A DNA stretch of 44,237 bases from Stramenopiles sp. TOSAG23-2 (GCA_900128395.1 LT649293.1:1-44237), one strand, 5' to 3'. Counted from the first letter of the stretch, positions 4,890 to 40,097 are shown. The notes: a model not told the origin generated them from the letters alone. A program made the numbers and translations.

Positions 4890-5684
4890 TTACATACTTT
4901 TTGGTGCATTGTAATCAAATCCAAATCTTAATGGATCATTTGTAAAAGCCAATATATAAATAATTGCGCCGAAAAGTGCACCTATAACTGGAGCAATCAT
5001 GTAAATTACTAAATTTGCTTCAAAGTTCCATGCAACAACCACAGGTGAAAATGCCCGTACAGGATTGAATGATGCACCTGTGAATGGGTATGCAAAGATT
5101 TGTAATGCACACATGGCTAAGCCAATAGCCATAGGTGCTGATACATTTTTAGCGATTACAGAACGGGTTCTGCATGTATTTGTTAATATAACCCAAGTTA
5201 AAAAGAAAGTGCCAAAGACTTCAAATACGAAACCACTGCCAACTGTACTACCATAATTAAGTTGTGGCGCACCAATTTTTGTTACACCAGTTGCTGCATT
5301 TGGAATCGTAGCAACTACTAAAGCAGCGCCAAACAGCCCACCAGCAAATTGTGCTATCAAGAAAAAAATGACACGACTGATGTCTTTACCATTCTTTTCT
5401 GAACCCCATTGATAACGCCCATGTGATGCATTCGTCAAGCCAATAGCTAAAGTAACAGCTGGGTTCATATAACCAACACCATATCTTGTAGTAATTTGTG
5501 TTAAATAAAGTAATACTGTATACGCTAAACCTTGTGTTAACGCAATAACAACTAGTCGCGGTGAGTTCAATTCATCGAATGTTACATTACCAGTGGATGT
5601 AACTATACCACAACATATGAATACATATAATGCGGTTGCTAGAAATTCTGTAAATACAGCCCTCCATTCAGTTTGGTCTGGCAT
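4890..5684 (-). CDS. Aquaporin (MIP family)
   Basis: TEFLAT, MNPAVT, FEVFGTF, TGASFNPVRAF and APVIGA motifs; six hydrophobic helices. Confidence 0.95.
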   Translation of the reverse strand: MPDQTEWRAVFTEFLATALYVFICCGIVTSTGNVTFDELNSPRLVVIALTQGLAYTVLLYLTQITTRYGVGYMNPAVTLAIGLTNASHGRYQWGSEKNGKDISRVIFFLIAQFAGGLFGAALVVATIPNAATGVTKIGAPQLNYGSTVGSGFVFEVFGTFFLTWVILTNTCRTRSVIAKNVSAPMAIGLAMCALQIFAYPFTGASFNPVRAFSPVVVAWNFEANLVIYMIAPVIGALFGAIIYILAFTNDPLRFGFDYNAPKSM

Positions 5685-7908: not shown

Positions 7909-10072
7909 TCAATGTTTGGAAAATTTCCTTCTTTTATTATTACGTTTTTTCTTATCATATCCACTTGTAGTACTAATCTGTTCACGCTTCGGTGCATATT
8001 TTTTCATGTATCTTTTTTCATTCTTATTCGTTTTTTTTAACTTTAACATCCAATCTGGCACATCATCACAACCACTTATTTTCATTACATTTGCAATACT
8101 TCTTAAATATTTCATGTCATTTTCCGTGAAAAAAGTAATTGCTTTGCCTTTACGCCCAGCACGCCCAGTACGTCCAATACGATGTACATAACTGACGGTA
8201 CTTTGTGGAAAATCATAATTAATAACACAATTCACTCCTTTGAAATCCATACCACGTGCCATTAAATCGGTGGCGATCAATACCCAGATTTCACCAATAC
8301 GAAATTTCTTAATGATGGTATCACGTTGATTTTTGGTTCTATCAGCATGTATTACATCCACATTTATGCCATCGTATACTAATTCTTTATATAATGCAGT
8401 TGCACGATCTTTACTTTGTACAAACATGATGACAGGCGGTGTCATACCACCTTCTTGAATAAGTTGTCTCATGGCAATTAATTTGCCTTCTTCACGACCA
8501 ACAAATACCAATTTCTGCTCGATAGTTTCAGTCGCAGCACCACGTTGTCCAATTTGCACACGCACTGGATCGATTAAAACAGATTTCACCAACTCTTCAA
8601 TACCTTCAGGCATGGTTGCACTAAACATACTACGTTGCAACTGCTTTTGTTCCTCCACTGTTGTACCACATGCATTTATAATCTCATCAACTTGTTCCAA
8701 AAATCCATCTTCAAATAATTTATCAGCTTCATCTAATATTAAACATTTTAAATCTTTCAATGATAATAAATTTTCTTTTAACACTGTTAATAAACGTAGT
8801 GGTGTTGCAATCAATAAATCAAATTGTTGCCTAGCTATTGGCTTGACGAATGCATCACATGGGCGTTATCAATGGGGTTCAGAAAAGAATGGTAAAGACA
8901 TCAGTCGTGTCATTTTTTTCTTGATAGCACAATTTGCTGGTGGGCTGTTTGCTATGATTCGATAATAATTTTACAGATGATAAAACCGATGCTTTAAACT
9001 TTTTTCCAAAACTTAATCTTTGAAAATCACGAAAAATTTGTCCAGCGAGTTCTCTAGTAGGTGTTAATACTAATGCTTTCGTTGTTGCTACGGTCATTGA
9101 ATCAACTGTTGATTGTTTATTTTTTCTAATAGATGCATTGATATTGCTTACAGGTCGCTTTAAAACATGACCGATTAATGGTATTAAAAACGCTGCGGTT
9201 TTACCACTACCAGTTGGTGCAACAGCTACAATGTCTCTTCCATCCATCATGACGGGTATTGCTTGCATTTGTATTGGAGTTGGTTCTTTATATCTAGAAC
9301 TTTCAATATTGCTTAATAATATTCTACGTACATGTTCATCTTTTTTTCCACCATGAAAGTAAATCGATTCAAATGTTTCAGCTGGTTTTGGTATCATATT
9401 ACCTTTGACATGAATGCGCATACGGCGCCTAAATGCATTTATTAATTCTAATTGATGTTTCAATTCATTTGTTTTGTCATTTATATTTCTAGATCCTGTT
9501 TTTTTATTTCCATTTTTGTTTACATTGTTATCACTATGGGATGGCTGATCTTTCCAACCACGAGATTCAGTTGTGTTGGCACTGTACATAGATATTTTAT
9601 TTAAACCATCATCATCATCATCATCATCAGAGCTATGCATATCACCAGCTTGATCACCTCCCTTTCGTTTCGATTTCTTCTTCTTCTTCTTCTTCTTTTT
9701 TGATTTTTTATGTTTACCACCACTATCTTTTTCCTCATCATCCGAGGGCCAACTTATAATTGATTTTCCCATACCATTATTTGTGTTCTGTTTCGAATTA
9801 TTTTGCTTCTTCTTCTCCTTTTTCCCTTTATTTTGTTCCGATGGTTCCCTGTTGTTAAAATTATTATCATCAAAAGTATCATTATTGAAAAAATCTATAG
9901 TTTCAGCTGGTGTAATTTCCTTTTGTCCATTATTATTATTGAAAAAATCAAGTTGATTTCTACTTTCTTGACTTCTTTTTTGACCAGAATTGAATAATTC
10001 AATTTGTTCACCAAATCTTTTCTTATTAAATCTGGCACCAGCATTTAATGAATTGAACAATGCATCTTCCAT
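7909..10072 (-). CDS. DDX52: DEAD-box RNA helicase DDX52/ROK1, split into two ORFs by an inverted aquaporin fragment at 8832-8951
   Basis: ORF 8879-10072 has the Q motif PTPIQMQAIP, APTGSGKT and PTRELA. ORF 7909-8814 has TPLRL, DEAD, SAT, ARGMDFKGV and HRIGRTGRAG, plus ROK1-type EEGKLIAMRQ, PPVIMFVQSKDRA and RSIANVMK. Confidence 0.88.
8832..8951 (+). repeat. 120-bp inverted copy of aquaporin coding sequence 5330-5449
   Basis: Identical by inspection to the reverse complement of 5330-5449; ORF 8471-8965 carries the aquaporin peptide LAIGLTNASHGRYQWGSEK...AGGLF. Confidence 0.97.
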
Positions 10073-21163: not shown

Positions 21164-21345
21164 GTACATGATAGAATATGAATTTATATTATATTTGAGA
21201 GATATATGTGATGTATGAGTAAGAGAACAATTTATATATGTGATTAATACGCCGAGGATATATAAAATATCATACGAGAAAACATATATTTTACGAAATT
21301 TGTTTAGTACAAAACTCTTACGACTCGTATATTTTATCACATACT

Positions 21346-21840
21346 TCACATAAGACTTTCAATTTGGCGTTGAATAGTTGGAAAAACGGTATATAAGATA
21401 TATCGTTTTATATACAAGATATTATCCATGCAACAACAATAAGTTGAAATTCTATTTCCAATATTTACATTATCATCACTCCGTTCTTCTTGAACTTTAA
21501 TCAAACTTTCGACTTCACCTTTTTCCTCCTCTATTGTATCACTATCATATTCATCATCATCAAAAGTGGCCATACGTTCCATACGACGGCGTTCAACTTT
21601 ATCATTATAATCCTCCAAAGCAGCAGCAATCGATCCATTATTTTGGACTTTACTTTGTTTTGATTTGTCCTTCAATAATTTTTCTAATTTTTCTATTTGG
21701 TTTACATTGTTATTCACAATATCTGGTGATGGTATAGTCCATTTGATATTATTTACATTATTATTTGTATGATCTACATCTTCTCCCCATATTTTATGGT
21801 CTATATCTTCAAACCACCGTTTCTTTTTCGTGGACATCAT
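21346..21840 (-). CDS. Hypothetical protein
   Basis: 164-aa ATG-initiated ORF with composition like neighbouring genes (Asn and acidic runs). Confidence 0.65.
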   Translation of the reverse strand: MMSTKKKRWFEDIDHKIWGEDVDHTNNNVNNIKWTIPSPDIVNNNVNQIEKLEKLLKDKSKQSKVQNNGSIAAALEDYNDKVERRRMERMATFDDDEYDSDTIEEEKGEVESLIKVQEERSDDNVNIGNRISTYCCCMDNILYIKRYILYTVFPTIQRQIESLM

Positions 21841-22045
21841 ATGATTCTATTTGTTTGCTGTTTTACCATGACGTATGGCATATGTTTGAATATTTTCTGT
21901 TGGCTATTTTAAATGGTCTTATTATCGAGTCTAGGACCTAGATTATTAGAGTGGTGATGCTAGAATTATTAATATTAAAAAATGTTGTTCAATATTTTCT
22001 TGTGTGTTTTGGTTTTTGGTTTTTTTTTTTTTAGAATAATTGAAA

Positions 22046-22340
22046 TAATAGAAGTTGTTTAGTGAATTTAGGCCCTGCTTTACTTATTGTTACAGTTTTA
22101 TACACTCTCATACGCTCACGCCTAAATAAGCCTTGTAGTTTATTTTCCCTTAACCAGATTCTAGTCATCTCTTAACCAGATTCTAGTCATCGTCGAAATC
22201 AAGTGGAAATCCCCTGTTATTCAGATAGGTAAAAAAGTATACAAAATGGTCGTGCTATTCCACCACAATTTAGGGCAAAATTGTGGTGGAATAGCATGAC
22301 CATTTTGTATACTTTTTTACCTATCTGAATTATTAAGGCA
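22046..22340. repeat. Dispersed hairpin element, copy 1 (two 21-mers + 53-bp stem, 6-nt loop)
   Basis: Homologous to 31342-31605. CTTAACCAGATTCTAGTCATC at 22149 and 22171. Inverted repeat 22219-22271 / 22278-22330 with one G.T pair and loop AGGGCA. Confidence 0.95.
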
Positions 22341-22854
22341 TACATGTATCTAGCTCTGTAAATAAAAGAATTACTAGGCAGTCCAACTTAAACTGCTTAA
22401 TAATAGTATTATCCGCAACTTTTGGTTTTTTTTGGTGCGCTTCTTATTCTTTTGTTGCTTTTATTTCAGTTCATTGCACCATTCAGAATTCAGAGTGGAA
22501 AATGGAAGCTGTGAAGCTGTGATGTTGTGGTGGTTAAGGTTTTTTTGAGACTTTGTAGAAGCTAAAATGGCATATAATAAATAAATCAGTTAAACAGTTG
22601 TTACATGTTACATGTACACATCTCTCTCTCTGATGTTTATTATAATAAAATGTATAGAGATTATAGAGATATACAGACGTTGTAAAGACAATCATCAAAT
22701 AGCAATAGTCGTCTATTCACTCGAATGGAAAACAAAATACAAAAAAAACCACAGGATCATATAATACATTTAAATATACATTGTGGAATCCCATTAAAAA
22801 AAAATTACAATACCATATTACTAGTATAATCATTACATATTACCATTAAAGTAA

Positions 22855-23884
22855 ATGCCATTTCCTAAACCCCCTTTTCATTCAGGACATCAAACGAATG
22901 AGGCATTATCACATGAAACAGTACGAAAGTATCATAGACATAATCCGCCAACTCCATTAGAAAAACATCGCATCAATCCACCAACACCACAATTTAATTC
23001 ATGGGGTTCAGATGTTCAATATACTACAAGAAAAAAAAGAGATAAGGTACCATGGTCAGAACAAGATGTAAAAAACGCTTGTTATCCAATGAATAAACAA
23101 GCCAGGCGTGTTTCGAATGATTTTAAAAAAGCCGTTGTGAAGCCAGGATATATTAGCGATTACAAAAAAAGCTTAGAACCACCACACTTTACGATGTCAC
23201 CACTTCGCTCTCATTACAGACGAACTGACTATGGAGCAAGAAGCTCAAATGAAACACAGGAGCAGTGAAGGTTATGCATATAATATCATTGATCCACAAC
23301 GAGTGGTACATGGTCAACGTTTGGAGGAGTTTGATACGACAGCCAATATAGGGTATCGGCGCGTTAAGAATCAATTGCCTCGGCAAGAGCGGCTTCACAA
23401 TGAAAAACTACAAAGAGCTCGTTTAGAGATTGAAAGACAATATAATAGAATAGCAAGAACGAAGCCACAAATTGATCGACATAAATTAGGATATAATTTA
23501 ATTACTAATGCTCGTAAACGAGGAAAAAGTCGCCAATCCATGGGATTTAGTCGAAGGGCACAACCTGTATGGGAAAGATTAGAGAAAAGCAATAAAGATA
23601 CAAACGTAGTTGAAAGATTTGGCGCATATGGTGGTTTAAAAAATCGTTTAGGAAAAGCAGCGCATTGCGTGATCCCCCCATATCAGGAAAAGCATCATCT
23701 TGATCGAATTTTTCCGAATCAAATAACAAGAAAAGAGACAATTAAAGAAATGTTCGGCAACGTACAAAAGCCACCAAGGTACAAAATAAATACAAATAAT
23801 AATAATGTTGGTTTATCTAAAACTACTGCTGGTAAATCATCCTTTGGCCGTGGTGGGAGTAACATCATTCGATCAACAATTTAA
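22855..23884 (+). CDS. Hypothetical basic protein, probably one gene with a frameshift (ORFs 22855-23268 and 23231-23884)
   Basis: Two overlapping same-strand ORFs of similar composition; the second frame is open from 23177. Confidence 0.6.
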
Positions 23885-24311
23885 AAATAATTTTTATTAA
23901 AAATTGTACAGGTAAAAATATGTTTGACAAAAAAGAACTTTTTTGTACATCTAAAATAATAAAATAATTTGCATCAACTTTTTTTATTATAGGGGTTTAT
24001 GAACGTACTCTATCAACTATACGTAATTACAACTACAAAACAACAAAACAAAAAGATATATTCGTTCACTCTGAGACGAGTAAAAAAAGCCAACTTAAAA
24101 CAAAAAAAAAACTATTATACTAGACTTTCTTCTTCTGAAGTAAAATCTGGCCAAGCTGTTGTGTGTTATAAACGAACAACTTATATACATAATTAGTCTA
24201 TAACATGACATTATGATAAGAAATAACACAAACAACAAAACAATTTCAACTGAATTTGCAATATCTTTAATTATACATCTACAAAGATATTTTGTTGTTT
24301 TGGTAGACACG

Positions 24312-24342
<31 letters not shown>

Positions 24343-24393
24343 AATATAGAGAAAAACACATATATATATAATATATATGTAACTATCCCGAAT

Positions 24394-27300
24394 ATGGCAT
24401 CTACTTCCTTTGCATTGCCTAATACTAATAAAATATTAGCAATTAGTAAAAGTGCAACTTTATCTTCCAATAACAATGATAATAATAGCAATAATAAAAC
24501 TAAAAACACACTTCAGATCTCATCACCAACTTCCTTTTTACCTTCTGTAGAGGATATGAAAGAAAAAACAATCCAAAATTTAAAAGCTGCCATAGAATTT
24601 AAAAACATGTTACATAGAATCCAACGAAGTGTTTTTGAGGCGTATACAAGAAAGTTTTTAGTTGAGTTTTTAGAAACTGATGATGGAAAACTGGCGATAA
24701 GACGCATTGATAAAGTTATAGTACCAATGTCAATTAAAGCTTCTAGTATGGCGGATGCACCTATTGTTGAAGATAGCAGTTTGAAACGTACATCCAAATT
24801 TCCATCATATATAAACAAAAGAGTAAACACAGCTAGGGAAAAGTTGGCATTAATGCATGAAAATCAATTGGAATCCTTACTAATGATACAAGCTGAAGCA
24901 AAAGCACAGTTACAAACTGGAACATCTATGGTTCAACTGTATACAATGTCAGAGACCGTATTGCATAAAGTTCGAGGAAATGTTGTTGGTGGTAGCGATC
25001 TTATGGATACAGCATTTTATGGTAGTAACAACAATAATAATAACGAAGGCCTTCGAGTCGATTTGAGCGATATAATTAGTGATGCCAGGAGGCAACAACA
25101 ACTGTTTCAGGAAAAACTTAAACGAGAGCTAGTACAAATGAATATATTGATTAGGTTGTCTGATGAACGACGGGAAAAATACCATAATTTCGACGCTGAC
25201 GAAGATAATTCAGCAAAACTATACCTTGGTGATAATTTAGCAAAAGATATTTTACCAGATGCAATAATTATAAAAAGCAAAAGTCGCAACATAGCTAATT
25301 TTGTTCATGATTGGCAATCAAATAATGACAATAAATTTAATCGTAGAAAGAAACGAAATAAATCAAATGAAAAGAAAACGTCGGATAGTAATGATCAGGT
25401 GGAAGAAAAAAATGATACCACTCTACAATTATCAAACAGTCCCAGTAATAACAACGATTCTACAACCAAGAATAATGATGGAAGAAGAAGAAGGAAGAAG
25501 AAGAAACGTCATTCAATGATTTTAGTTTCTTTAAAGGATGAAGTGAAAGTCGATTACAGCTCCACAAAAAAGGAACATAAAAAAAAATATAAAAATAGTA
25601 GAAGTGCATTTAAAGAAACTTTAAGTGGATCTGCATATAACGACGAGGCAGATACTAGCGAAACAGTTGAAGAAGAGAAAATAGCTCTTGAATTGAAAAT
25701 CGAATACTTAAACAGCGTGTTATTATCGTTAAATAGAACACGCACAACGGATAAAAAAGAATTAGAAGAGGTAAAGCGAGCGTTGTCAAAATGGGATGGT
25801 ATATCAACAATGAACTTACCGCAAAGTGTTGTGTCCATGATCGAAAAGGACGAGAAACATAAAACAATGATCAAACAGAAAAAGTTTGGATCACTAAGAA
25901 AGCTAAAAAAAGGTGACGACAAGAAGCCGAAAAATGATGATGTGAGAAAAAGCAAATCGAGCAAGCACAAGGAGCATCGTGTTAGCAAAGGATATACACT
26001 AAGCTCGAATCATAATCATACTGTACATAAACATAGAAAAATGCTCACTCCATCAAAAGTAATTAAAATAGCAAAACGTGAAATGGTCACCAAAAATGTT
26101 GCTGCTACTATTATACAAAAGCAATTTAGAGGAATCATAGCTCGTAATTATATTAGGCTCGTTCGTGCTAGAATTCAAGATGCAACGTTGCAACGCGAGA
26201 TTCATGGAATACAATTACGCTCAGTATTAAAAGTTGTTTCTAAAATGCGATTGTTTATCAAACGGCGAAGGGCAGAAAAACAGAAAAAAATAAAACATAT
26301 TTCGAACCTTGTAGTGGCAAAAGCGAAAGTAAGAAAGCATCGTGTAATTACACAAAAGAAACTATTGCAAGACATTTCCAATGGGGCGGCAGAAAAAGCC
26401 AGAGAAATGAGGCAAGCCAAGCACTTCTTGAGAAATACAGATGATAATAATCATATTGAAACAGCTATTAAACAAAGAAGGCAAAGTATAGCATTAATTA
26501 AGAAATCAGCTGCTTTAGTTGCAAAACGTGCTGTTGAAATAACAGAACTAAAAGGAAGTAAAAAATCAATCTTTATGGATGCCGCGCTTGGAGGTAAAAA
26601 GCGTGAAGTAAGATTGAAAGAGGTAGCCGAGAAACAATACTTAGATACTCACAAATTAATGTTAAAAAATGCTGCCGACCATGCCAAATGGAAGAAAAAG
26701 GAAGCTGATATCGCGGAAAAGCTTAGCCGTTTACGTAGTAACTTAAATTCTAATTCATCAAGAAAGTCACGACGTGGAAGTTGGATGCCAAATACTGCCC
26801 CGCAAGCTGCGAGTCTAAAAGACAATAATGATACAACGTTAACCAAAGGCACTCGGGTTGAAGTGTCCTTGCCATGTCCAGGAAGAAGTGCAGATGATGT
26901 TTTGACTGGATTCATCATCCAAGATGACAACGGCGATCCTTCGATAGTGACGTATGGAACCGTTGCTGAATTAAAAATTAAATTTGATGATGGACTGACT
27001 TCAAGCGTACCGAAAGATCTCGTACGAGCATCAACAGCTCCGTTGCCTTATCTAGTCCAAACCCGTAGGAAAGCACCATCAATAGCAGCACCGTTACCAC
27101 CATCAGCAGTGCACCCAAAAGAATACCTTTTATTAAAAGCTGCGATTGAAAGAATTTGGAATAAATATGATATTGACAATTCAAACTCAATTGATACAAA
27201 AGAAGCACAACAAATGATGATTGATGTCACAGGACATAAAAACGTATCAGAAAATCACGTAAAAACTTTCATCGCTCATGTTGAAAACAAGGCATATAAA

Positions 27301-30009
27301 GCAACTGGTCAAAAACCAAATGGAACATTGGAAAAGAATGAATTATTAAACTTTTTAGAACACGGTATTCATGGTAATGGTATTCATATGGATGAAGAGC
27401 AACAAGAAATATATGCAAAAAGAGGAGCATTCGAAAAAACACTAGTTGATTTTTTCGATGGATGTGAAGAATTAATATATGAAATAATGGATGAGCATAG
27501 GGACTTGTTGATAAAATATATTGATTCAATATGGCATAAGTACGATGTAGATAATAGTAATAGTATAAGTCTGACAGAAGTAAAACAATTAATATTAGAT
27601 ATCAGTGGCCATGATCACGTATCAGATGATGAATGTCTAGATTTCATAAAATATATTGAAAGTCAATCATCTGATAATGGTGACTATAATGGTGCTATAG
27701 AAAAAGAAGAATTATTATCATTTTTGGAAGTTACTACTTCAATGAGTGAAGATGAGCGTAAAATTTTTGGAAGTCGAAGTAAATTCCATGCAACATTAGC
27801 TGACTTTATTAATGGCGTAGATAAAGCAAGACATGGATTTAGGGACTTGTTGATAAAATATATTGATTCAATATGGCATAAGTACGATGTAGATAATAGT
27901 AATAGTATAGGTCTGACAGAAGTAAAACAATTAATATTAGATATCAGTGGCCATGATCACGTATCAGATGATGAATGTCTAGATTTCATAAAATATATTG
28001 AAAGTCAATCATCTGATAATGGTGACTATAATGGTACTATAGAAAAAGAAGAATTATTATCATTTTTGGAAGTTACTACTTCAATGAGTGAAGATGAGCG
28101 TAAAATTTTTGGAAGTCGAAGTAAATTCCATGCAACATTAGCTGACTTTATTAATGGCGTAGATAAAGCAAGACATGGATTTAGTAATAATAGTGATGCC
28201 GAAGAGGCAAAACAAATGACAATGGATATAACTGGTCATCCACCATCAATAGCAGCACCGTTGCAACTAACACAAAAATCGGAACCATCAATAGCAGATC
28301 CACCATCAATAGCAGCACCGTTGCAACTAACACAAAAATCGGAACCAGAAAAGAAAAAATCATGGACGAAAAAATCAAAAGGGACGCTGTCTAAAATTAG
28401 AAGCGCCATTAGAAAGTCTAAAAAGATTACAGGCAAAATCGATCCAAACGATACCAACATTGTTGAAAAAATATTTCGATCAAGCTTTGCATCCAAACCA
28501 AAACAAGCAATCGATTATAAAAACAGGTCTATTTCACCATTTAGTAAGCATCTAACAGAAGATGAGCTGAAAGAGAGAGAAGAATCCGACAGAAATTCCT
28601 TTATCGATCGTATATGGAGCAAATACGACGGAGATGGGAATGGAGACTTAGATGCTAGCGAAATGAAACGTTTAATTGATCGTTTTACTGGGGAAAAAGT
28701 AAGTGTCATAAATGTGGAAAAGTTCTTAAAGGAAATTGATCAAGATGGAGATGCGTTGATACAACAAGAGGAATTAAGGGACTTTGTCAGTTTTGGGTTG
28801 ACGTTATCAAAGCAAGATAGGGAGAACTATGCGGCAAGGGGGCCCCTACAAAAAATCATTGTAAAATTTTTCTATGGTTTAGATGGCGCAGCACGAATAC
28901 ATGCAAAAGAACAAAGAGCAATTGAACGCCAAAAAATCCAAGAGGCGGGGCTGATGGCACAAAAAGAAGAGAGACTTAGACAAAAGCGTTTGGTGGAGAT
29001 TCGTCGTAAAAAGGAAGCGGAAAAAAAGGAGGCATCAAAGGAGAAAAAATCAATATTTCGTAGACTTGGTCGTGGTGTTTCATTGATGAAACACAAAGTT
29101 ACCGAGGATGAAATACCATTAAGCGAGAAGGATGAGCTAGAGCGAACGGAATTTATAAATTTTGTATGGAAAGAATATGATAAGGATGGAAGTGGTCAAA
29201 TAGACGCGAATGAGACAAAACAATTGCTACAAGATTTTACTGGACATGAAGTCAGTTTTGAAGATGTAAATGATTTTCTATCAAGTATAGATGCAGATGG
29301 AGATGCACTAATTCAAAAGGGCGAATTGATAGATTTTATAAACGCGGGCATGGATTTAACTGAAAGCGAAAGAACAGATTATGCCACTCGTGGTTCATTG
29401 CATTCGACAATTGTAGAGTTTTTCTACGGTGTTGATACCCAACGCAAGCAATTTATGGAACAAAAAAGAACAGCTATGAAAGCAGCAGAGGCGGACATGG
29501 ACAAAATCTTGGAAGATAGACGAAAACGTTACAGGGAAGCAAGTGCTAGAAGTAAATCACCTGCAGCAATGAGAAAAAGAATGGATAGCAGGACGCCATC
29601 TCCTAAAACGAAGGGAAAGGGAGGAACTGCAGATGTAGGAGACTATGTTCAGATCATTTTGCCTTTCTTGAAATTCGAAGTCAACGATAAATTGGTTGGA
29701 ATTGTTCTTGAGATACAAAGCCATGGCGCTAGGACAGTAAGAATAGATACAGCTGGGTTGACTGGAGAAATTCAAAGCAACGAATATACAGTACCATCCG
29801 AAAAATTACAAGTAATTACTGAAGATGAGTATGACGATGAGATTTTATTGTTGCCATATATTCCAAAACAATCACGTCTTAATCGTAGTTCTTCTCGTAT
29901 TGATTTTGGAATCCAAAAACAAAAAACTATTGTAGGTAGTCCCCCCGAAGAATCAAAAAAGAAAAAACAGAATTCAAAATTTCGCTCAACTCGCCATCGA
30001 AATGTTTAA
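24394..30009 (+). CDS. 1871-aa IQ-motif and multi-EF-hand protein
   Basis: IQ motif AATIIQKQFRGIIARNY. EF loops DIDNSNSIDTKE, DVDNSNSISLTE, DGDGNGDLDASE, DQDGDALIQQEE, DKDGSGQIDANE and DADGDALIQKGE in five ~100-aa modules. Confidence 0.9.
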   Translation: MASTSFALPNTNKILAISKSATLSSNNNDNNSNNKTKNTLQISSPTSFLPSVEDMKEKTIQNLKAAIEFKNMLHRIQRSVFEAYTRKFLVEFLETDDGKLAIRRIDKVIVPMSIKASSMADAPIVEDSSLKRTSKFPSYINKRVNTAREKLALMHENQLESLLMIQAEAKAQLQTGTSMVQLYTMSETVLHKVRGNVVGGSDLMDTAFYGSNNNNNNEGLRVDLSDIISDARRQQQLFQEKLKRELVQMNILIRLSDERREKYHNFDADEDNSAKLYLGDNLAKDILPDAIIIKSKSRNIANFVHDWQSNNDNKFNRRKKRNKSNEKKTSDSNDQVEEKNDTTLQLSNSPSNNNDSTTKNNDGRRRRKKKKRHSMILVSLKDEVKVDYSSTKKEHKKKYKNSRSAFKETLSGSAYNDEADTSETVEEEKIALELKIEYLNSVLLSLNRTRTTDKKELEEVKRALSKWDGISTMNLPQSVVSMIEKDEKHKTMIKQKKFGSLRKLKKGDDKKPKNDDVRKSKSSKHKEHRVSKGYTLSSNHNHTVHKHRKMLTPSKVIKIAKREMVTKNVAATIIQKQFRGIIARNYIRLVRARIQDATLQREIHGIQLRSVLKVVSKMRLFIKRRRAEKQKKIKHISNLVVAKAKVRKHRVITQKKLLQDISNGAAEKAREMRQAKHFLRNTDDNNHIETAIKQRRQSIALIKKSAALVAKRAVEITELKGSKKSIFMDAALGGKKREVRLKEVAEKQYLDTHKLMLKNAADHAKWKKKEADIAEKLSRLRSNLNSNSSRKSRRGSWMPNTAPQAASLKDNNDTTLTKGTRVEVSLPCPGRSADDVLTGFIIQDDNGDPSIVTYGTVAELKIKFDDGLTSSVPKDLVRASTAPLPYLVQTRRKAPSIAAPLPPSAVHPKEYLLLKAAIERIWNKYDIDNSNSIDTKEAQQMMIDVTGHKNVSENHVKTFIAHVENKAYKATGQKPNGTLEKNELLNFLEHGIHGNGIHMDEEQQEIYAKRGAFEKTLVDFFDGCEELIYEIMDEHRDLLIKYIDSIWHKYDVDNSNSISLTEVKQLILDISGHDHVSDDECLDFIKYIESQSSDNGDYNGAIEKEELLSFLEVTTSMSEDERKIFGSRSKFHATLADFINGVDKARHGFRDLLIKYIDSIWHKYDVDNSNSIGLTEVKQLILDISGHDHVSDDECLDFIKYIESQSSDNGDYNGTIEKEELLSFLEVTTSMSEDERKIFGSRSKFHATLADFINGVDKARHGFSNNSDAEEAKQMTMDITGHPPSIAAPLQLTQKSEPSIADPPSIAAPLQLTQKSEPEKKKSWTKKSKGTLSKIRSAIRKSKKITGKIDPNDTNIVEKIFRSSFASKPKQAIDYKNRSISPFSKHLTEDELKEREESDRNSFIDRIWSKYDGDGNGDLDASEMKRLIDRFTGEKVSVINVEKFLKEIDQDGDALIQQEELRDFVSFGLTLSKQDRENYAARGPLQKIIVKFFYGLDGAARIHAKEQRAIERQKIQEAGLMAQKEERLRQKRLVEIRRKKEAEKKEASKEKKSIFRRLGRGVSLMKHKVTEDEIPLSEKDELERTEFINFVWKEYDKDGSGQIDANETKQLLQDFTGHEVSFEDVNDFLSSIDADGDALIQKGELIDFINAGMDLTESERTDYATRGSLHSTIVEFFYGVDTQRKQFMEQKRTAMKAAEADMDKILEDRRKRYREASARSKSPAAMRKRMDSRTPSPKTKGKGGTADVGDYVQIILPFLKFEVNDKLVGIVLEIQSHGARTVRIDTAGLTGEIQSNEYTVPSEKLQVITEDEYDDEILLLPYIPKQSRLNRSSSRIDFGIQKQKTIVGSPPEESKKKKQNSKFRSTRHRNV
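27498..28184 (+). repeat. In-frame tandem duplication, 2 x 342 bp (one EF-hand module)
   Basis: Units start at 27498 and 27840; two substitutions (S/G and A/T in the protein). Confidence 0.95.
28238..28347 (+). repeat. In-frame repeat with 60-bp period (PPSIAAPLQLTQKSEP)
   Basis: Units at 28238 and 28298; the core CACCATCAATAGCAGCACCGTT also occurs at 27074. Confidence 0.9.
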
Positions 30010-30359
30010 AAGAAATATGATATATATCTTGACCTATTTAGTAGAGTGCAGACCTGCATTAAGAGCTTTACTATACGAACGTATTTAAGTAACAGGAATA
30101 ACTTATACGAACGTTCGTATATTTTTGAGATAGAGGTTAATTAAACAAGCATTAAAATTTATTTTTTTTAACTACACTGGGAAGTAAAATTATTACGCGA
30201 TGTACTAGAAACTTTTTTAGATTTTAGACCACATATTTTTCATTTTTGTACGAAGTCGTACACATATTATATTTTTTATTTTATCATATAATCTTTTCAT
30301 ATTTTTTAAATATTACCAGTATTATCTCTAGCTTCTCATTCGCCGACGCGCGCAATTAT

Positions 30360-31130
30360 TCATTTTAAACTCCTTCTTATATTTACGTCATATAATCTTC
30401 TTTCATCATCAGAAGTAGCTTTTTTAATTTCTTCTTCAGTAGGTGGTTTAGCTTCATCAGGCACAGCAAAGGAATCTTGTGATGGATTTAGTGTTGAATA
30501 GATAATAATGCCTACAATACCTAGAACTACTAATAATAGCAAAATGACAGTCGCCCGATCTTGCATCATCCTTCTTCGATAGACATATAATATTTTACCA
30601 GCACGACGAATATCTGATTGCAAACCACTAGCTTTTTTATTTATTCGTTGCAACTGTTCTGTCTGATCTTCCAGTTGTCCAGATATAACTTCCCCAACTT
30701 TCACAGCTTCATTTACTTTGTTTAAGCCTTGCTTTAACAAGTCTTTATCTTGATTTTGGACCTTGAGCATGTGATTTGCAATTTGTTCATCAGTCACTGG
30801 TTTTTGATTTGACTCTTTTCCTAACAAGTCTTCTTTCTCTACGTGTGTCTTCGCCCATTTAAAGTCATCTTTCAATTTTTTAATATCAGCTTTGAATTCA
30901 GTTTGCCTTTTTCGAGCATCTGTTTTTTCCGTGGCATTTCCAATATTTAATAATTCTGTCCTGTATGACCGTTGCAAGCTTTTCAATCGACTGAACAACT
31001 TTTCAATATTTTCCAAACTATCTAGCTTATCTTGTTTACTTGTTTTTTCATTTTTGCATTTTGCCAGCAAATTTTTGACATTTGTGATAGCTGTAGTAAT
31101 CATATCATCCCAATGCGTTATGTCCGTCAT
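30360..31130 (-). CDS. NPSN/Vti1-like Qb-SNARE with C-terminal transmembrane helix
   Basis: Helical N-terminal domain, SNARE motif LEDQTEQLQRI, then RRMMQDR, TM segment VILLLLVVLGIVGIIIY and LNP, as in NPSN-type SNAREs. Confidence 0.8.
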   Translation of the reverse strand: MTDITHWDDMITTAITNVKNLLAKCKNEKTSKQDKLDSLENIEKLFSRLKSLQRSYRTELLNIGNATEKTDARKRQTEFKADIKKLKDDFKWAKTHVEKEDLLGKESNQKPVTDEQIANHMLKVQNQDKDLLKQGLNKVNEAVKVGEVISGQLEDQTEQLQRINKKASGLQSDIRRAGKILYVYRRRMMQDRATVILLLLVVLGIVGIIIYSTLNPSQDSFAVPDEAKPPTEEEIKKATSDDERRLYDVNIRRSLK

Positions 31131-31341
31131 GTTGTAGAGGATATAAAGATGGTATATGCTTTATAAATATGTCAATATATCTATATCTATTTATCTATCT
31201 TTTGATATGCAATATAGCTATAGTACATGTATGTACATGTATATGATGTTTGGAAATGTGTGTGTTTTGTGTGCTTACATTTATTCAATATTCATCATAG
31301 TACCTGTAATATGCACATATAATATTTTTTTTTTTTTTTTT

Positions 31342-31605
31342 TAATAGAAGTTTACTTATTGTTACAGTTTTATACACTCTCATACGCTCACGCCTATGTA
31401 AGCCTTGTAGTTTATTTTCCCTTAACCAGATTCTAGTCATCGTCTTAACCAGATTCTAGTCATCGTCGAAATCCCCTGTTATTCAGATAGGTAAGGAAAG
31501 TATACAAAATGGTCGTGCTATTCCACCATAATTTAGGGCAAAATTATGGTGGAATAGCACGACCATTTTGTATACTTTCACTACCTATCTGAATTCATTA
31601 AGGCA
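31342..31605. repeat. Dispersed hairpin element, copy 2 (two 21-mers + 54-bp stem, 6-nt loop)
   Basis: 21-mers at 31421 and 31444. Inverted repeat 31481-31534 / 31541-31594 with a 2x2 mismatch and loop AGGGCA. Confidence 0.95.
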
Positions 31606-31722
31606 CATAATATTTGTTTTTATGTACAATGGTATGTCTATGTTGTATGCTGGTATGCCAGTATGCCTCTATATTATAATACCGAACTGGTATTAGTATT
31701 ATATAGAATATGATGACCCCCC

Positions 31723-31916
31723 TCGAACACGCACATCGCATTGGTTTTGGGTATATATATAATTGAAATAATTAAAACAAAAGAAGAACAGCTAAGCACA
31801 AAACAAAAACCAAAATAATCGAACACGCACATCGCATTGGTTTTGGGTATATATATAATTGAAATAATTAAAACAAAAGAAGAACAGCTAAGCACAAAAC
31901 AAAAACCAAAATAATC
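31723..31916 (+). repeat. Tandem duplication, 2 x 96 bp, upstream of the SNARE paralogue
   Basis: Units start at 31723 and 31819. Confidence 0.95.
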
Positions 31917-31951
31917 AAAAACAAAAACAAAAAAAACATGACAATATAGCA

Positions 31952-32554
31952 ATGGAATACTTTGAAGGCGAATTTGATAAAAATATTGTTGAAAGTAAAA
32001 ATATTATACAACAAATTAAAATGGAAAGAAAAACTAAGAAGAATAATGTACAAAATAATGTAATTAACAAACCTGACAAACTAAAAATATTGAAAACTAA
32101 ATTGAAGAACGCAAAAAAATATTTACGATACTATAAGAAAGAGACACTGTTGATGTTTCCCAATTTCAAGGAAAAAGAACAAATTATGAAAATGAAAGCA
32201 GCACTATCATCATTACAAAATGAATTAAAATGGTGTCAATTATTTTCTTTTGAAGAAAAAGCAGAAGATGATGAGGAAAAAACTGATGATATTTCTAGGT
32301 CCCTTCTTTTTCTTCAACATATCGAAAAAGTTCAACGAGATGATAAGGAAAGATTGCAGCAAGCTTTTGAAAACGCACAGCAAATGTTGGAAATAGGCCC
32401 AGAAATAATTGAAACAATTAAAGACAATAATAATAAATTGGAACGTATAAACGCAAAAGTAGATTTAATTGACAATGATGTAGAACGTGGTAAAAAAATC
32501 ACGCGAGTATTAAGAATACGTAATACTGCAATAGGATTTATTTGCTGTTGGTAA
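31952..32554 (+). CDS. SNARE paralogue of 30360-31130 lacking the TM helix, ending in CCW
   Basis: Colinear similarity to the neighbour: ELKWCQ/DFKWAK, HIEKVQRDDKERL/HMLKVQNQDKDLL, LERINAK...DVERGKKI/LQRINKK...DIRRAGKI. Confidence 0.75.
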   Translation: MEYFEGEFDKNIVESKNIIQQIKMERKTKKNNVQNNVINKPDKLKILKTKLKNAKKYLRYYKKETLLMFPNFKEKEQIMKMKAALSSLQNELKWCQLFSFEEKAEDDEEKTDDISRSLLFLQHIEKVQRDDKERLQQAFENAQQMLEIGPEIIETIKDNNNKLERINAKVDLIDNDVERGKKITRVLRIRNTAIGFICCW

Positions 32555-33026
32555 AGATGTCAGTAAAATATGACATTTGATGTAATCACATATATATTAC
32601 GAGTATATATGCATAGACTATATATATAAAATATTCACATAGATTTATTTGCTGTTGGTAAAGATGTCAGTAAAATATGACATTTGATGTAATCACGATA
32701 TATATTATATATGCATAATCACATATATATTTTTATATATGCATAGACTAGATAAAATATTCACATACACTCTCTGCTGTACGAAGTATATGTGTAATTG
32801 TATCTCTAGCTTATCATAATATTTTTATATATTACGCGTTATAAGATTTATTTGCTGTTGGTAAAGATGTCAGTAAAATATGACATTTGATGTAATCACA
32901 TATATATTACGAGTATATATGCATAGACTATATATATAAAATATTCACATACACTCTCTGCTGTACGAAGTATGTGTAATTGTATCTCTAGCTTATCATA
33001 ATATTTTTATATATTACGCGTTATAA
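32535..33026 (+). repeat. Compound tandem repeat in the convergent spacer
   Basis: A ~55-bp unit GATTTATTTGCTGTTGGTAAAGATG...AATCAC at 32535, 32642 and 32845. A second ~78-bp module at about 32766 and 32950. Confidence 0.93.
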
Positions 33027-33090: not shown

Positions 33091-35747
33091 TTACAAAGAT
33101 CCATTTCTTATTGCTCTTTCATACGTTTCCCTGACGTTTGATACAGGATCATCTTTTAACTTTGTTAATGTTTCTCTACATAAAGTTTCAAAAACATCTT
33201 TTTTGACCATTTCCCGTTTCAATATTACACATACTTCAACAAAAAGCAAGCGTAAATGATAAGTTTCAGCCTTGCCAAGCTCATTCACCAATCTTTCTAT
33301 AAATGTATCTCTCCAATCAAATTCACCATCTAAACGATTTGCAATGGTACCAACGCATAAGGCACCTGCCCTTCTAACATTTGCAACAGGATCGTTCAAC
33401 ATTTTAAAAGTTAACGACTGTATCACACTAACAGTTGCTGGTGGACTGAATAGTGTACCAAATGTACCTAATTGATTCGCTAACAATAAACGAAATCGCC
33501 TGCCCTTCTAACATTTGCAACAGGATCGTTCAACATTTTAAAAGTTAACGACTGTATCACACTAACAGTTGCTGGTGGACTGAATAGTGTACCAAATGTA
33601 CCTAATTGATTCGCTAACAATAAACGAAATCGCCAATTTCGACGACCTACCCCTTCTAAAATTTCACTCATAACAACTAAAAAGCTTTCACGGCATGGAT
33701 TATCCAATGCTTGTAAAAACGTTGCTAAATTTTCCACGACTCCAACACGCACCTCATCTACATCGTGAAGCAGGGTATCAAATGCATTTAAAAGCTCTTT
33801 TTCAGATTTAACAGGTCCTAATATTTGCGCTAAACGATGCAATGAATATGCCAATGTACGCCTCACACGTTGTTGTGGGTTCTCCACTAAAGTTAAAAAC
33901 ACATGGCGTAATGATTTTTCCCATTTATCAGGGCCTAGAACATATGCCACTCCCGGCAACGAATAAGCGCAAAACATGGCTAAATCATCCGGGTCAGGAT
34001 GCGGATCACTAGTAGACGCCGAGCCTTCAAACTCCATGCTGCTGCTACGTTGTCTATTATAAAATTCATTGCCATCACTAGTACTTCCAGCGTTACTTGA
34101 GCCATCACGGCCGTTGCCAAATTCTAGTTTATGATTATCTGCTTTCCGAAAATTGCCTAATGTAGGCAACATACGTTCCAATGGCGGTGACATGCGATCG
34201 CTGCTATCTGGGTACGCCATGCTTTGGTACACAGACAGTAAATTTTCATCTATTATGTTGGCATTTCTTTTATTTGATCTATTCTGATGGTGGGATAAAG
34301 GCGATAAACTTTTTATAATAGTTTCATTTTTTATATTTACATTTTCTGGTTTTTGTTGTTGTTGCTCGTTTTTACTATCTGATTCATTTTTCTTTTTCTT
34401 GTTCTCATTGTTACTACTAGTATCATTATTGTTTTTATTCTTTGGAGATTTACTTGGAGATTTTGAAGATTTGCTTGTCCTACTAGAATCAGTCTCTTTT
34501 CCATTTACTATGATAATTTCTTTTGTATTGAATTCAATTGATGTTATTGTTCCATTTTCATATCCAATAGTCATCCCTTCACATCCACCACCCATAACGG
34601 TTAAAAATTGACCTAAATATTGAAATGCAGTATTTCGTACCCATTTGGATGGATCCGACGTAACAAATCGGCGATAGACTTTCGTTAATGTCTGCTTTCG
34701 TTTGCCAATCAAGTTTTGACTTATTCGCAATTCTTCCGGTAAAACTTGAGCGATTTGCCACAAACTCTCCGCACAAGCTTTTCTTACACCCCATATTTCA
34801 TCCTCAGTTAAATTGAAAAAAGCGGGTAATAATCTTTCCGTAATATCTTCATGGCTTGATGTGCGAAATATATTTGCAATGTGCCTAGCGACGGCCATGC
34901 GGACACGAAACGAACCATCTTCTGCTAAATTTTGGACGGTCGGAGTAATAAATTGACCACATACTTCCTCCTTGCATAAAATCGGCGATAGCATATTTAA
35001 CAATTCAGCACCGGTTATTCTTAATTCCTCAACAGTGTCATTTCCAGCTAACTGAATGACAATAGTTAAGATATGGCTGGCTAAATCATCTAATTCCAAC
35101 AATGATGCAACCGATACAAGCGCTTCCGATGCAGCGGAACGAACCTCCACCGATACTGTATCCGCTAATAGCTTTGCTATAACTGGTAAAATATCATGCA
35201 AAACACATTGGTATCCTTTGATATATATTTCCTTTTCTTCTTCAACTTCGGTTCCATATTTATTATTAATATTATTATTATTATTTATATCCTCATTAGA
35301 TATCATTTGATCATCTTTCGAAACTACACAACAAGCTTCTGATATATCATACAATTGAAAGGCTAGATCCCGTCTTATTACTGCTTCAACGTCTACGGAC
35401 AATTCAGTTAATAATGGCACTAGACGTTCAATACTTGCTTCACTACCAGCAATTTTTGCTGTTTCACCTAACATTCTGACATGTACAGAACGTTGTAAAG
35501 CCATTTGTGCCGTTGAATATTTCACTACCCGCTCTAAAATGGGCAATGTATCATCAATTAATAAATCATCTGACGTAATAGGCTGCGATGGCGCTCTTTC
35601 TTGACGTGGAGTAGTATCTCTGGTATTCCTTGCGATAATATTATTCACTGCATCAATATCATTATCACCATTATTATTATTATTATTTGGGGGTGGAGAA
35701 AATACTTCATTTCCATTTGCAGACGCATTATTGGCCAGGGAAGCCAT
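33091..35747 (-). CDS. PPP4R1: Protein phosphatase 4 regulatory subunit 1-like HEAT-repeat protein, frameshifted by a 134-bp duplication
   Basis: Motifs IWGVRKACAE, DPSKWVR, CAYSLPGVA, VRRTLAYSLH, DEVRVGV and RNWRFR. Removing one 134-bp copy gives an 840-aa ORF from ATG 35747. Confidence 0.85.
33365..33634. repeat. Tandem duplication, 2 x 134 bp (frameshifting)
   Basis: Units start at 33365 and 33499; the peptide LANQLGTF...VRRAG appears in both ORFs. Confidence 0.97.
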
Positions 35748-38169: not shown

Positions 38170-38235
38170 TTATTCTTTTGAAGAGTAGGAATTATCATGT
38201 GAGTAAATTAAAAATAAATTATGCGTGTAAATTAA
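38170..38235 (+). repeat. Dispersed ~62-66 bp repeat, inverted copy of 52-113
   Basis: Equals the reverse complement of 52-113 apart from two GT insertions. Confidence 0.9.
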
Positions 38236-38407: not shown

Positions 38408-40097
38408 TTAAATAGTCACGCTTTGGCGGTCATCATATTTAATGACATAACGCCCATTTTGGCCATCATCATTTTTATTTATAGATTGACTCATTATGTA
38501 CTTCATCGCCATATCACTTGCTATACCACTTACTATTCTAATTGTTGAGGGCCATCTTATTCGTGGCACTTTCTTGCTGTCTTTGTGGGAAGTATTATTC
38601 TCATCATTTTGATCGACATCGTTTGTATTATTATTATTATTATTATTATCATTTTCTTCTTCCTCCTCCTCGTTTTTATTCTTGCTGTCTTTGTGGGAAG
38701 TATTATTCTCATCATTTTGATCGACATCGTTTGTATTATTATTATTATTATTATTATCATTTTCTTCTTCCTCCTCCTCGTTTTTATTATTTCTTTGACT
38801 GACATATTGGGGCTTTCTAAACTTTACCATTCCGCTACGTCCATTTTTATTTAAATGTATTAATATTAAAGGTATTTCTAATTTATCGGAAAGGGAATAT
38901 AGCTGTTCACGAATTTCATTAGAATGTATCGTGCAGATGATTATATTTGGTGGCCGACGTTTTTTTCGCACTGAATTAATACGACTAGAAAATATGTTTT
39001 GTCTTTCATTGTACAAATTATCATTAAATTGATTTACATAATTATCTTCCTCCTTGATAAACAAATTATAATGTTCTTCCTGTTCCACCATCATAAGATA
39101 CTTTTGAAATTTATTAAAACCGATATTATTACTTAAATCTACATTGCATGGACGTATTGATATATGTTGATTGCTTTCATTTTCCATTTTCATATTATAG
39201 TAATTTAATGATTCTAATTCTTTCGTTACTGCTATTGCGCGATTGTAATTTAAAAATATTGGAGAAAACTGATGATGGAGAACATCCGTTGAATTAACAT
39301 TTTGTTTATCAACAAGTAACAAGTCTTCCACACCCATGCGAGTAAATATATCTGCAACAATTTTTCCAACAGCACCGGTGCCTAAAACGACAACATATGA
39401 TTGAAATATAGTTTGTAATTTATTTCTATCAATTTCATATTGTTCATTTATTTCCTTCATTGTCATATTTAAACTATTTCGTTTTGTTATTGTAATTGAT
39501 TCGAATAATTTACTATATTGTTTTGAATCTTTTTTTGGAATAATTTTCTTTTTCTCAGCAGCATCTTTATTTTCTACATTAGCACTATCATTTTCTACAA
39601 TATTGCCGCCTTTAAAATTTTCCTTTAAATTTTCACGTGCTTTTATTTGTTCCTCTGCGAAAATAAATGCATCCGCAACACGATCTGAATATATTTTCAA
39701 CTTTTTTATTTGTATTACAACTTTCCGTAACGCAATACTAGCTAAACAATTACCATGCATTACAGAGCGATCTGGTGCTGTCTCCCCTAACTTGATAATT
39801 TCACCATGCAGTTCCTCTTCATCTTTTATATGCAACAATTTCATAAATGGGTCAAACATCTCAGCGACACGTCGATTTTCTTCCTTATCAAAATCGAGCT
39901 TTTTTTCATGTGCAACGTCAATTGATAGTTGTAACTTACGCACCAGCAACACGTCGATTTTCTTCCTTATCAAAATCGAGCTTTTTTTCATGTGCAACGT
40001 CAATTGATAGTTGTAACTTACGCACAGTTTGGATTAAAGAACGAATGGTGGTTGCATAATCGTTTCCTTCATTACCATTGTTATTATTATTATACAT
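38408..40097 (-). CDS. Protein with degenerate ThiF/UBA5-like Rossmann domain; 5' end frameshifted by an 82-bp duplication
   Basis: VVVLGTGAVGKIVADIFTRMGVEDLLLVD. Removing one 82-bp copy gives a 535-aa ORF starting MYNNNNNGNEG at 40097. Confidence 0.75.
38571..38788. repeat. In-frame tandem duplication, 2 x 108 bp
   Basis: Units start at 38571 and 38679. Confidence 0.95.
39862..40025. repeat. Tandem duplication, 2 x 82 bp (frameshifting)
   Basis: Units start at 39862 and 39944, one mismatch. Confidence 0.95.

Follow-up and report, generated by a model that had tools for sequence, protein, structure and literature searches.

The 44,237-nucleotide (nt) contig LT649293.1 of Stramenopiles sp. 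TOSAG23-2, analyzed here as a whole and called the window, contains two copies of a non-coding element with a long hairpin, copy 1 (W1) and copy 2 (W2). The window has a GC content of 33% and is densely packed with long, mostly uninterrupted open reading frames (ORFs), whose products are eukaryotic proteins of ordinary kinds, namely a kinase, an aquaporin, a DEAD-box helicase, and EF-hand, HEAT/PP4R1, MRG, ThiF-like and TPR proteins. Copy 1 lies between the head-to-head ORFs 21346-21840(-) and 22855(+) and copy 2 between the head-to-head ORFs 30360-31130(-) and 31952(+), and the ORF map bears out the divergent arrangement that an earlier reading from the sequence alone (the sequence-only reading) had described for both. 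No ORF of at least 100 amino acids overlaps either copy. Judged by the anatomy of their ends, both copies are probably minus-strand insertions of a short (~400 nt plus tail), non-coding, poly(A)-tailed non-LTR retroposon (LTR, long terminal repeat) that depends on a long interspersed nuclear element (LINE). Copy 1 retains the full length, and copy 2 breaks off shortly beyond the hairpin.

This kind of mobile element is ordinary, and it is the long internal hairpin that is unusual. We propose that the copies inherited the hairpin, an inverted duplication inside the element, from their source genes, and that it is not an RNA gene selected at each locus; the differences between copies that preserve pairing are mostly subfamily differences, and the arms mostly decay after insertion. 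The family appears to be previously undescribed in a marine stramenopile, no description having been found in non-exhaustive literature searches, with no repeat library compared. The sequence-only reading had made novelty depend on a search against known families; no Rfam family matches, and a poly(A)-tailed retroposon is a known kind of element.

Structure of the two copies

The alignment of 22079-22340 with 31351-31605 has 91.4% identity over 266 columns (E = 6e-104), both stretches lying in the same orientation. The full extents, 22020-22419 for copy 1 and 31325-31605 for copy 2, are wider than first noted, as they include a T-run at the left of both copies and ~80 homologous bases at the right of copy 1 (Table 1). 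The sense strand of the element is the minus strand of the window, and the left T-run corresponds to the minus-strand poly(A) tail. A tandem motif had been reported in each copy, and the 20-mer TTAACCAGATTCTAGTCATC does occur twice in each (22150, 22172, 31422 and 31445); these four matches compare with 0.01 expected by chance, and four were reached in 0 of 100 shuffles.

The hairpin was likewise recovered in both copies, with 53-nt arms that are 98% complementary in copy 1 (22219-22271 and 22278-22330) and 54-nt arms that are 96% complementary in copy 2 (31481-31534 and 31541-31594), each closed by the 6-nt loop AGGGCA. Folded as plus-strand RNA the copies have z scores of -12.9 and -12.8, respectively, with 0 of 200 shuffles as good, and the minus strand of copy 1 has a z score of -11.5. 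On the minus strand the family consensus ends in ...CAATAAGTAAACTTCTATTC(A)n and the ~60-nt tail of the element reads ...GAGAGTGTATAAAACTGTAACAATAAGTAAACTTCTATTC(A)n. The hexamers AATAAG and AGTAAA stand 15-19 nt ahead of the tail and may act as poly(A) signals.

Table 1. Parts of the two copies and their flanking repeats, in window coordinates
Feature	Position	Strand	Basis
Copy 1 candidate target-site duplication, left, TTTTGGTTTTT	22007..22017	.	same 11-mer at 22420-22430, right after homology ends
Copy 1 T13 run, minus-strand poly(A) tail	22020..22032	-	T-runs open all seven loci with a left end
Copy 1 3' tail/leader module	22033..22148	-	alignment of copies
Copy 1-specific leader variant, two extra segments of 14 and 23 nt	22033-22078	-	alignment
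Copy 1 conserved ~70-nt leader	22079-22148	-	alignment
Copy 1 tandem 20-mer TTAACCAGATTCTAGTCATC x2, period 22-23	22150..22191	-	motif count
Copy 1 internal hairpin, loop 22272-22277 (AGGGCA on +)	22219..22330	-	53-nt arms, fold
Copy 1 5' module of full-length element, ends ...TATCCGCAAC	22331..22419	-	homologous to L003, L004/L006 and L001 past TTAAGGCA
Copy 1 candidate target-site duplication, right	22420..22433	.	junction-anchored repeat test
Copy 2 candidate target-site duplication, left, CACATATAATATTT	31314..31327	.	recurs as CACATAATATTT at 31604-31615
Copy 2 T18 run, minus-strand poly(A) tail	31325..31342	-	run length
Copy 2 tail/leader, 20-mers (31422-31441, 31445-31464) and linker	31343..31480	-	alignment, motif count
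Copy 2 internal hairpin, loop 31535-31540	31481..31594	-	54-nt arms, fold
Copy 2 truncated 5' end (...TCATTAAGGCA), lacking the ~80-nt 5' module	31595..31605	-	L002 stops no more than 2 nt away from here
Copy 2 candidate target-site duplication, right	31604..31615	.	junction-anchored repeat test

Ends of the element and its dispersal in marine metagenomes

A 20-mer scan of metagenome contigs returned nine loci (L001-L009). L009 is the copy 2 locus itself (99.5% identity over 3988 nt), and L004, L006 and L007 are 97-99.7% identical to one another and form a single locus. L001, L002, L003, L005 and L008 have only the element in common with the window and with each other. Including both window copies the total is eight loci, or nine copies with a second fragment at L002, and the search for further copies that the sequence-only reading had recommended has thus yielded six loci beyond the two of the window, all with unrelated flanks. 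Their GC content is 30-38%, compared with 33% for the window. The ORFs flanking them are ordinary eukaryotic genes for kinesin, a PIF1-like helicase, DnaJ/Sec63, VHS-GAT, MORN, a papain-type protease and WD40 proteins, and no reverse transcriptase or transposase was found among them. Viral contigs, searched with the hairpin top, the 20-mer and the leader, and genome contigs gave 0 matches.

Element words occur in 20 of the 24 listed public runs, all marine or seawater metagenomes from 14 studies, and six runs are RNA libraries. The PP4R1-like protein of the window has environmental relatives with 52-100% identity, while its nearest named relatives are from oomycetes (35-38%). Taken together, the marine runs and the oomycete-nearest PP4R1 indicate that the host is an uncultured marine stramenopile, possibly of a MAST lineage, which is a guess; the main text of the MAST single-cell study PMC5778133 mentions neither GC content nor repeats nor transposition.

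Four public runs were compared with the window over 21300-22900 as assembled Logan contigs, not raw reads, and such contigs carry no information on strand, on the ends of transcripts, on small RNAs or on the level of expression. In the DNA run, summed contig depth was 4.3-40.5 over the element bins and 2.2-3.1 over the covered flank bins, which agrees with a multicopy element as far as this measure goes, being a rough guide and not a copy number. A loose end of the contigs lies at 22388, inside the 5' module of copy 1.

One end of the element is constant. A T-run of 10-20 bases opens all seven loci in which the left end is present (W1 13, W2 18, L001 11, L002 7+G+7, L003 20, L005 10 and L008 13), and in these copies it is followed by (G/A)AATAGAAGTTTACTTATTGTTACAG. 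Contigs of three of the four public runs show T7-T21 and then GAATAGAAG at the W1 junction. In W2 and L003 the right-hand flanking repeat passes into unique sequence without a long T-run, so the run arrived with the insert.

The far end varies. W1, L003 and L004/L006 continue for ~80 nt past TTAAGGCA and lose homology at one shared point, where the sequence reads ...ATATCCGGCACTCTAAC and in W1 ...TATCCGCAAC. W2 and L002 stop at TTAAGGCA, 11-12 nt beyond the hairpin, L008 stops at the hairpin centre, and L001 stops ~40 nt past TTAAGGCA, near the end of its contig. A constant tail end combined with a variable far end is thus present in both the alignment and the junctions.

Direct repeats at the junctions were found in three of the five testable copies. 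In L003, AA(T/C)GTGTGTTA..TAGTATTTTT stands on both sides over ~22 nt, with a local score of 16 that 0 of 2000 shuffles matched. The score of the W2 repeat, CACATA(TA)ATATTT, was reached by 3 of 300 shuffles when anchored at the junction and by 127 of 2000 when unanchored, and that of the W1 repeat, TTTTGGTTTTT, by 7 of 300 junction-anchored shuffles. When upstream and downstream flanks were mismatched (n = 20), no pair reached the W1 score and one reached the W2 score. These candidate duplications vary in length from 11 to ~22 nt, and each begins with a run of A on the element sense strand.

Target-primed reverse transcription by a LINE endonuclease/reverse transcriptase yields, as its standard product, a 5'-truncated body, (A)n and flanking duplications. 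The 3' poly(A) tail on the minus strand, the 5' truncation and the variable-length candidate duplications together carry the signature of a LINE-dependent retroposon. Only this end anatomy is observed; the steps that would lead to it are reconstructed as follows. A source copy would be transcribed, probably by RNA polymerase II (Pol II), since internal T4-T7 runs would stop RNA polymerase III (Pol III) and AATAAG/AGTAAA precede the tail. The transcript of ~400 nt, from the minus strand and beginning at GTTAGAGTGCC, would be polyadenylated. A LINE-encoded endonuclease/reverse transcriptase would then nick a T-rich target, prime on the poly(A) tail and copy toward the 5' end, often halting early. 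Insertions made in this way would share their tail end, differ in how far their 5' end is truncated and be flanked by duplications whose length varies. The 5' terminus common to three loci suggests a defined transcription start and argues against random fragments of a long LINE.

Like LINE-dependent non-autonomous retroposons with poly(A) tails, which comprise SINEs in the broad sense and processed retrocopies (reviews PMC2881922 and PMC3747384), the present element is short and non-coding, has a variable poly(A) tail, a constant 3' end and variable 5' truncation, and falls into subfamilies; its candidate flanking duplications, present in three of the five testable copies, are of variable length and start with A, as in that class. 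Unlike LINE-dependent short interspersed nuclear elements (SINEs), it has no tRNA-, 7SL- or 5S-derived Pol III head, and it contains internal T4-T7 runs, a near-perfect 53-54 base pair (bp) hairpin and a tandem 20-mer; its partner LINE is putative. Among oomycetes, Phytophthora infestans has the SINE family infSINE and its relatives. Oomycete SINEs (PMC3429519, PMC3522703) are likewise short interspersed retroposons in a stramenopile, and discussions of the Phytophthora elements link them with small RNAs and with silencing of genes in their vicinity. Any relationship would be one of kind alone, and the host of the present element is an uncultured marine lineage.

Two other classes were considered and rejected. 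ARAGORN found 0 tRNA genes, Rfam gave 0 matches at gathering score, and in 21950-22480 there was no tRNA, 5S or 7SL Rfam match even with E relaxed to 10. Canonical Pol III SINEs have a 5' head of tRNA, 7SL or 5S origin with internal A/B boxes; the element does not fit this class, given that it has no such head and that oligo-T runs, which act as Pol III terminators, lie inside the element on its sense strand; TTTT is present within the hairpin arms on either strand, and T6-T7 in the copies called A-type below. LTRs have TG...CA termini and 4-6 bp duplications, and the termini of the element do not fit a solo LTR.

The copies fall into two types. A-type copies (W1, L002 and L008) have an A-run block and no G at the 20-mer junction, and W1 and L008 additionally share an 11-nt insertion; W2, L001, L003 and L005 are G-type. 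L003 and L004/L006 are mosaics; in the latter the left arm is G-type and the right arm A-type, with five mismatches between them. As the block states of the stem travel with diagnostic sites outside it, two source lineages are indicated. In RNA contigs the shared tail is followed at 22110 by two different sequences (255 and 56 loose letters). The tail is therefore used by other families too, which would resemble the partners of one LINE.

Two loci have further peculiarities. At L004:480-652/L006 an unrelated A/T-rich sequence stands ahead of AGTTTATTTTCCC and holds a ATATCCGG motif resembling the far end of the element; this leaderless copy may be a rearranged or nested insertion. At L002:150-262 a second, inverted and more diverged copy lies ~90 nt upstream of the main one. 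The stretch between its right arm and the 20-mer is deleted, and the loop stands in the opposite orientation to the sequences that flank it.

Pairing and paired changes in the hairpin

The sequence-only reading listed three differences between the window hairpins that keep pairing, and all three are correct: C22266-G22283 in W1 is T31529-A31546 in W2, G22252.T22297 in W1 is a G-C pair in W2, and A6/T6 in W1 corresponds to AAGGAAA/TTTCACT in W2. In an alignment of seven complete hairpins from six loci, 97.9% of cells pair and 45 of the 54 pairs never vary. The covariation that had been claimed is present and modest. Five pairs are changed on both sides, three of which belong to one block with two states, AGTGAAA/TTTCACT (L001 and the right arm of W2) and A6-7/T6-7 (W1 and L002).

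The main covarying pair, a C/T site five bp from the loop, occurs in all four combinations, namely C-G (W1, L001), T-A (W2/L009), T.G (L002, L006) and C.A (L004); L005 has T at this site in its left arm, and its contig ends within the right arm. Both strands of a palindrome present the same sequence context, so recurrent C>T at a symmetric site suffices to explain these states without selection. Changes private to one copy are mostly unpaired (W1 one, L001 two, L002 one, left arm of W2 two). Mismatches between the arms of one copy number 1, 2, 2, 2, 5 and 5, the last two being L004 and L006 of one locus, and are not clearly fewer than the differences between copies (mean 3.1-3.7 per arm comparison). 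From the unpaired private changes and the arm mismatches, the dispersed copies behave as decaying inserts, unlike RNA genes under selection one by one. RNA contigs also contain a variant whose near-palindromic centre is different (...AATTCTGATCAAAATT...), and L008 ends at such a centre; the loop is thus not conserved across the wider family. A choice of transcribed strand from G.U versus A.C mismatches was considered and dropped, as wobbles are found for both strands, as expected of neutral transitions.

Three signs point to copying from arm to arm. The three-base block is mirrored, L009 and W2 differ at their common locus by a C>A change mirrored as G>T, and the second L002 fragment has an inverted loop. 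The mirrored stem changes are best fitted by subfamily inheritance together with template switching by DNA polymerase or reverse transcriptase, and of the explanations that the sequence-only reading had offered for the covariation, arm-to-arm conversion is the one that the added copies favor. The inverted duplication itself possibly originated by snap-back or twin priming during reverse transcription, or by template switching in replication. Twin priming in L1 elements yields 5' inversions. Template switching at inverted repeats is described in PMC8604942 and PMC8794818 as a cause of arm homogenization, spacer inversion and multi-base compensatory change. The element resembles the hairpins treated there (PMC8794818, PMC8604942) in its mirrored block (AGTGAAA/TTTCACT versus A7/T7), its mirrored change at a single locus and its inverted loop, and those cases concern rRNA genes and short inverted repeats in yeast coding DNA. 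Unlike them, the element has arms of 53-54 bp inside a retroposon, and the switching enzyme could be a DNA polymerase or a reverse transcriptase.

Several observations weigh against the retroposon interpretation, or against parts of it. The W1 repeat is T-rich and of low complexity, and unanchored it is not significant (341 of 2000 shuffles as high). No flanking duplication was found at L002 and L008, two of the five testable copies, and no joint skipping the whole of W1 (an empty site) occurs among the contigs, although bins 22002-22055 and 22434-22487 are uncovered, so that this absence carries no weight. The L004/L006 copy lacks the T-run and the ~70-nt leader entirely. No reverse-transcriptase gene or LINE with the shared tail was found, no search aimed at it having been made, and the loci stem from metagenome assemblies in which strains or species are possibly mixed. 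In the hairpin, the number of pairs changed on both sides was reached by 6 of 500 shuffles and the covariation score by 20 of 500; since both-side changes exceed the shuffles, some pairing constraint may exist in the source genes. De Bruijn assemblers can homogenize or mis-phase the arms of inverted repeats, and the mirrored W2/L009 change and the arm swap in L004/L006 could be assembly artefacts.

Alternative explanations, gene context and other features of the window

An unlikely alternative, close in kind to the retroposon interpretation, is that a single non-coding hairpin RNA gene with a polyadenylated transcript gave rise to the copies as processed retrocopies, which would be dead on arrival and unable to propagate, with a functional source such as a precursor of hairpin RNA or small interfering RNA (siRNA) elsewhere. 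The anatomy of retroposition would be identical, AATAAG/AGTAAA ahead of the tail and the internal T-runs argue for a Pol II transcript, and the arms do decay in the copies. Against a single source stand the mosaic copies L003 and L004/L006 and at least two subfamilies with linked diagnostic sites inside and outside the stem; such subfamilies imply at least two lineages of source copies, as found in families that propagate themselves.

Lower still is the probability that the copies are functional hairpin RNA genes, resembling microRNA precursors or hairpin RNAs, that are transcribed independently in bidirectional promoters, with selection maintaining the pairing. The high stability of the stem, near-perfect on both strands, and the excess of doubly changed pairs over shuffles would suit such genes. 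The element is also found in contigs of six RNA libraries, and its summed depth in one metatranscriptome was 24-403 over element bins compared with 1.9-3.9 over covered flank bins, but contigs of RNA libraries, even at higher depth, are no proof of transcription, strand or level; the oligo-dT run X17 has a single 151-nt contig on the element. The invariance of most pairs, the four states of the main covarying pair including a C.A mismatch, the private changes that mostly break pairs and the five arm mismatches of L004/L006 all speak against selection on pairing, and L008, L003 and the second L002 fragment have no complete stem. Tail, truncation and duplications moreover point to an origin by retroposition.

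Rfam offers such genes no family. The matches are sub-threshold, the best being 50.5 against a gathering score of 110 bits and 50.1 against 122, and at relaxed E they comprise generic long-hairpin and 3' untranslated region hairpin models alone, on both strands. The precursors MIR2655, MIR6217 and mir-4796 share a long, almost perfect stem and a small loop with the element, which scores 42.7-50.5 bits against their gathering scores of 90-122, again on both strands. Such low scores on both strands indicate generic hairpin geometry and no sequence relationship. A microRNA precursor or hairpin RNA gene, proposed by the sequence-only reading as one possible primary nature of the element, is not upheld in view of at least eight dispersed loci, decaying arms and the lack of an Rfam family.

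It is very improbable that the element derives from a DNA transposon (a foldback element, a miniature inverted-repeat transposable element (MITE) or a Helitron-like element) with the hairpin as recognition structure. A long inverted repeat in a short, non-coding, dispersed element would suit this origin, and the W2 and L002 ends, 11-12 nt after the hairpin, loosely recall a Helitron 3' end. However, the inverted repeat lies within the element, at a distance of ~200 nt from one terminus and of 11-89 nt from the opposite one, the termini are not mutually complementary, one end carries a homopolymer run of variable length, and the duplications vary from 11 to ~22 nt, whereas a transposase family makes a fixed length; nor are the ends TC...CTRR. 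Of the non-autonomous foldback mobile element suggested earlier, mobility and non-autonomy hold, and the foldback or MITE assignment does not, because the hairpin is internal, the ends are not inverted and the duplications are variable.

Helitrons have a 5' TC, a 3' CTRR and a short 3' hairpin, and insert into AT without duplication. A Helitron was rejected for the element, which begins T(n)GAATAG..., finishes in ...GGCACTCTAAC or ...TTAAGGCA and has candidate duplications. The PIF1-like ORF beside L008 was rejected as a Helitron helicase, as its PIF1 domain starts from residue 189 of the ATG-started ORF, leaving no room for Rep.

The position of the copies relative to genes is suggestive of a link to promoters. 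At all three loci where both sides could be scored (W1, W2 and L008) the element lies in a divergent intergenic region; the sole scorable side is a gene 5' end at L003, L005 and L002 and a 3' end at L001 and L006. At the ORF level, 9 of the 11 scorable sides are thus gene 5' ends, and divergent regions make up ~35% of the intergenic DNA of the window, elements excluded. The bias has a p value of around 0.03-0.04 in a simple binomial, to be read with the non-independence of sides, the bare ORFs and the tiny sample in mind. The promoter link put forward by the sequence-only reading accordingly stands as a suggestion drawn from ORFs. In the simplest account, it is enough for the bias that the endonuclease prefers A/T-runs or that promoters tolerate insertions better than short 3' regions do.

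Duplication of a host cis-element from one divergent promoter to another, be it a cruciform-forming promoter, an insulator or a module of a replication origin, would also place copies in this way, yet we give it hardly any credence, since L001 and L006 adjoin gene 3' ends, the bias rests on few and non-independent sides of bare ORFs, the flanking genes are functionally unrelated, truncated and internally deleted copies show that the hairpin is not conserved, and tail, truncation and duplications suffice to explain how the copies arrived.

With a retroposon family as the preferred interpretation, an apparent new structured RNA with covariation becomes a member of an ordinary class of mobile element. 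Covariation from few copies of a long palindrome can mislead, as subfamily inheritance, symmetric mutation hotspots and template switching all mirror changes. Such a family implies active or recently active LINE machinery in the lineage, and the element is a multi-copy metagenome marker for this lineage as well as a natural test case for palindrome evolution. There is a small chance that the stem has a function in source transcripts, where Dicer might cleave it or the retrotransposition machinery might require its structure, and either function, if true, would explain why the 3-bp block is perfectly compensated in both diverged subfamilies. In the Dicer case, hairpins that generate siRNAs would be spread by the family among bidirectional promoters, where they would silence the family in trans or tune neighbouring genes.

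Gene orientation in the window is nearly strictly alternating (- + - + - + - + - + + - + - + - -, a multi-ORF gene counted once), the intergenic regions measure 230-1000 nt, and the genome is compact and intron-poor. Both ORFs flanking copy 2, 30360-31130(-) and 31952-32554(+), appear to encode small coiled-coil, SNARE-like proteins, the latter matching V-SNARE_C weakly (E 0.00099) and short of the Pfam cut-off, and may be a divergently transcribed pair of paralogues. A perfect 96-nt tandem duplication (31723-31914) adjoins copy 2 on its right and precedes the ORF at 31952. The L009 contig is apparently one unit short, as its matches to 31723-31826 and 31819-31920 overlap by ~100 nt, which is either a polymorphism or an assembly difference. 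L009 is collinear with the window from 27079 to about 33246 and then continues with 43030-41789 and 40468-39430 in inverted order; either strains differ in structure here or one of the assemblies is wrong.

Other tandem or near-tandem duplications, perfect or with 99% identity, occur at 33365-33632 (134 nt x2), 38571-38786 (108 nt x2), 27498-28139 (300 nt at a spacing of 342, in the EF-hand ORF) and 32531-32951 (56-111 nt x3). They are unusually frequent for 44 kb and are either real or an assembly artefact. A 120-nt inverted repeat with 100% complementarity joins 5330-5449, inside the aquaporin (MIP) ORF 4890-5684(-), to 8832-8951, between the halves of the DEAD-box helicase (7909-8628 and 8879-10072, both minus), and could be an inverted insertion of a gene fragment or an assembly chimera. 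A 30-nt perfect inverted repeat links 84-113 and 38170-38199.

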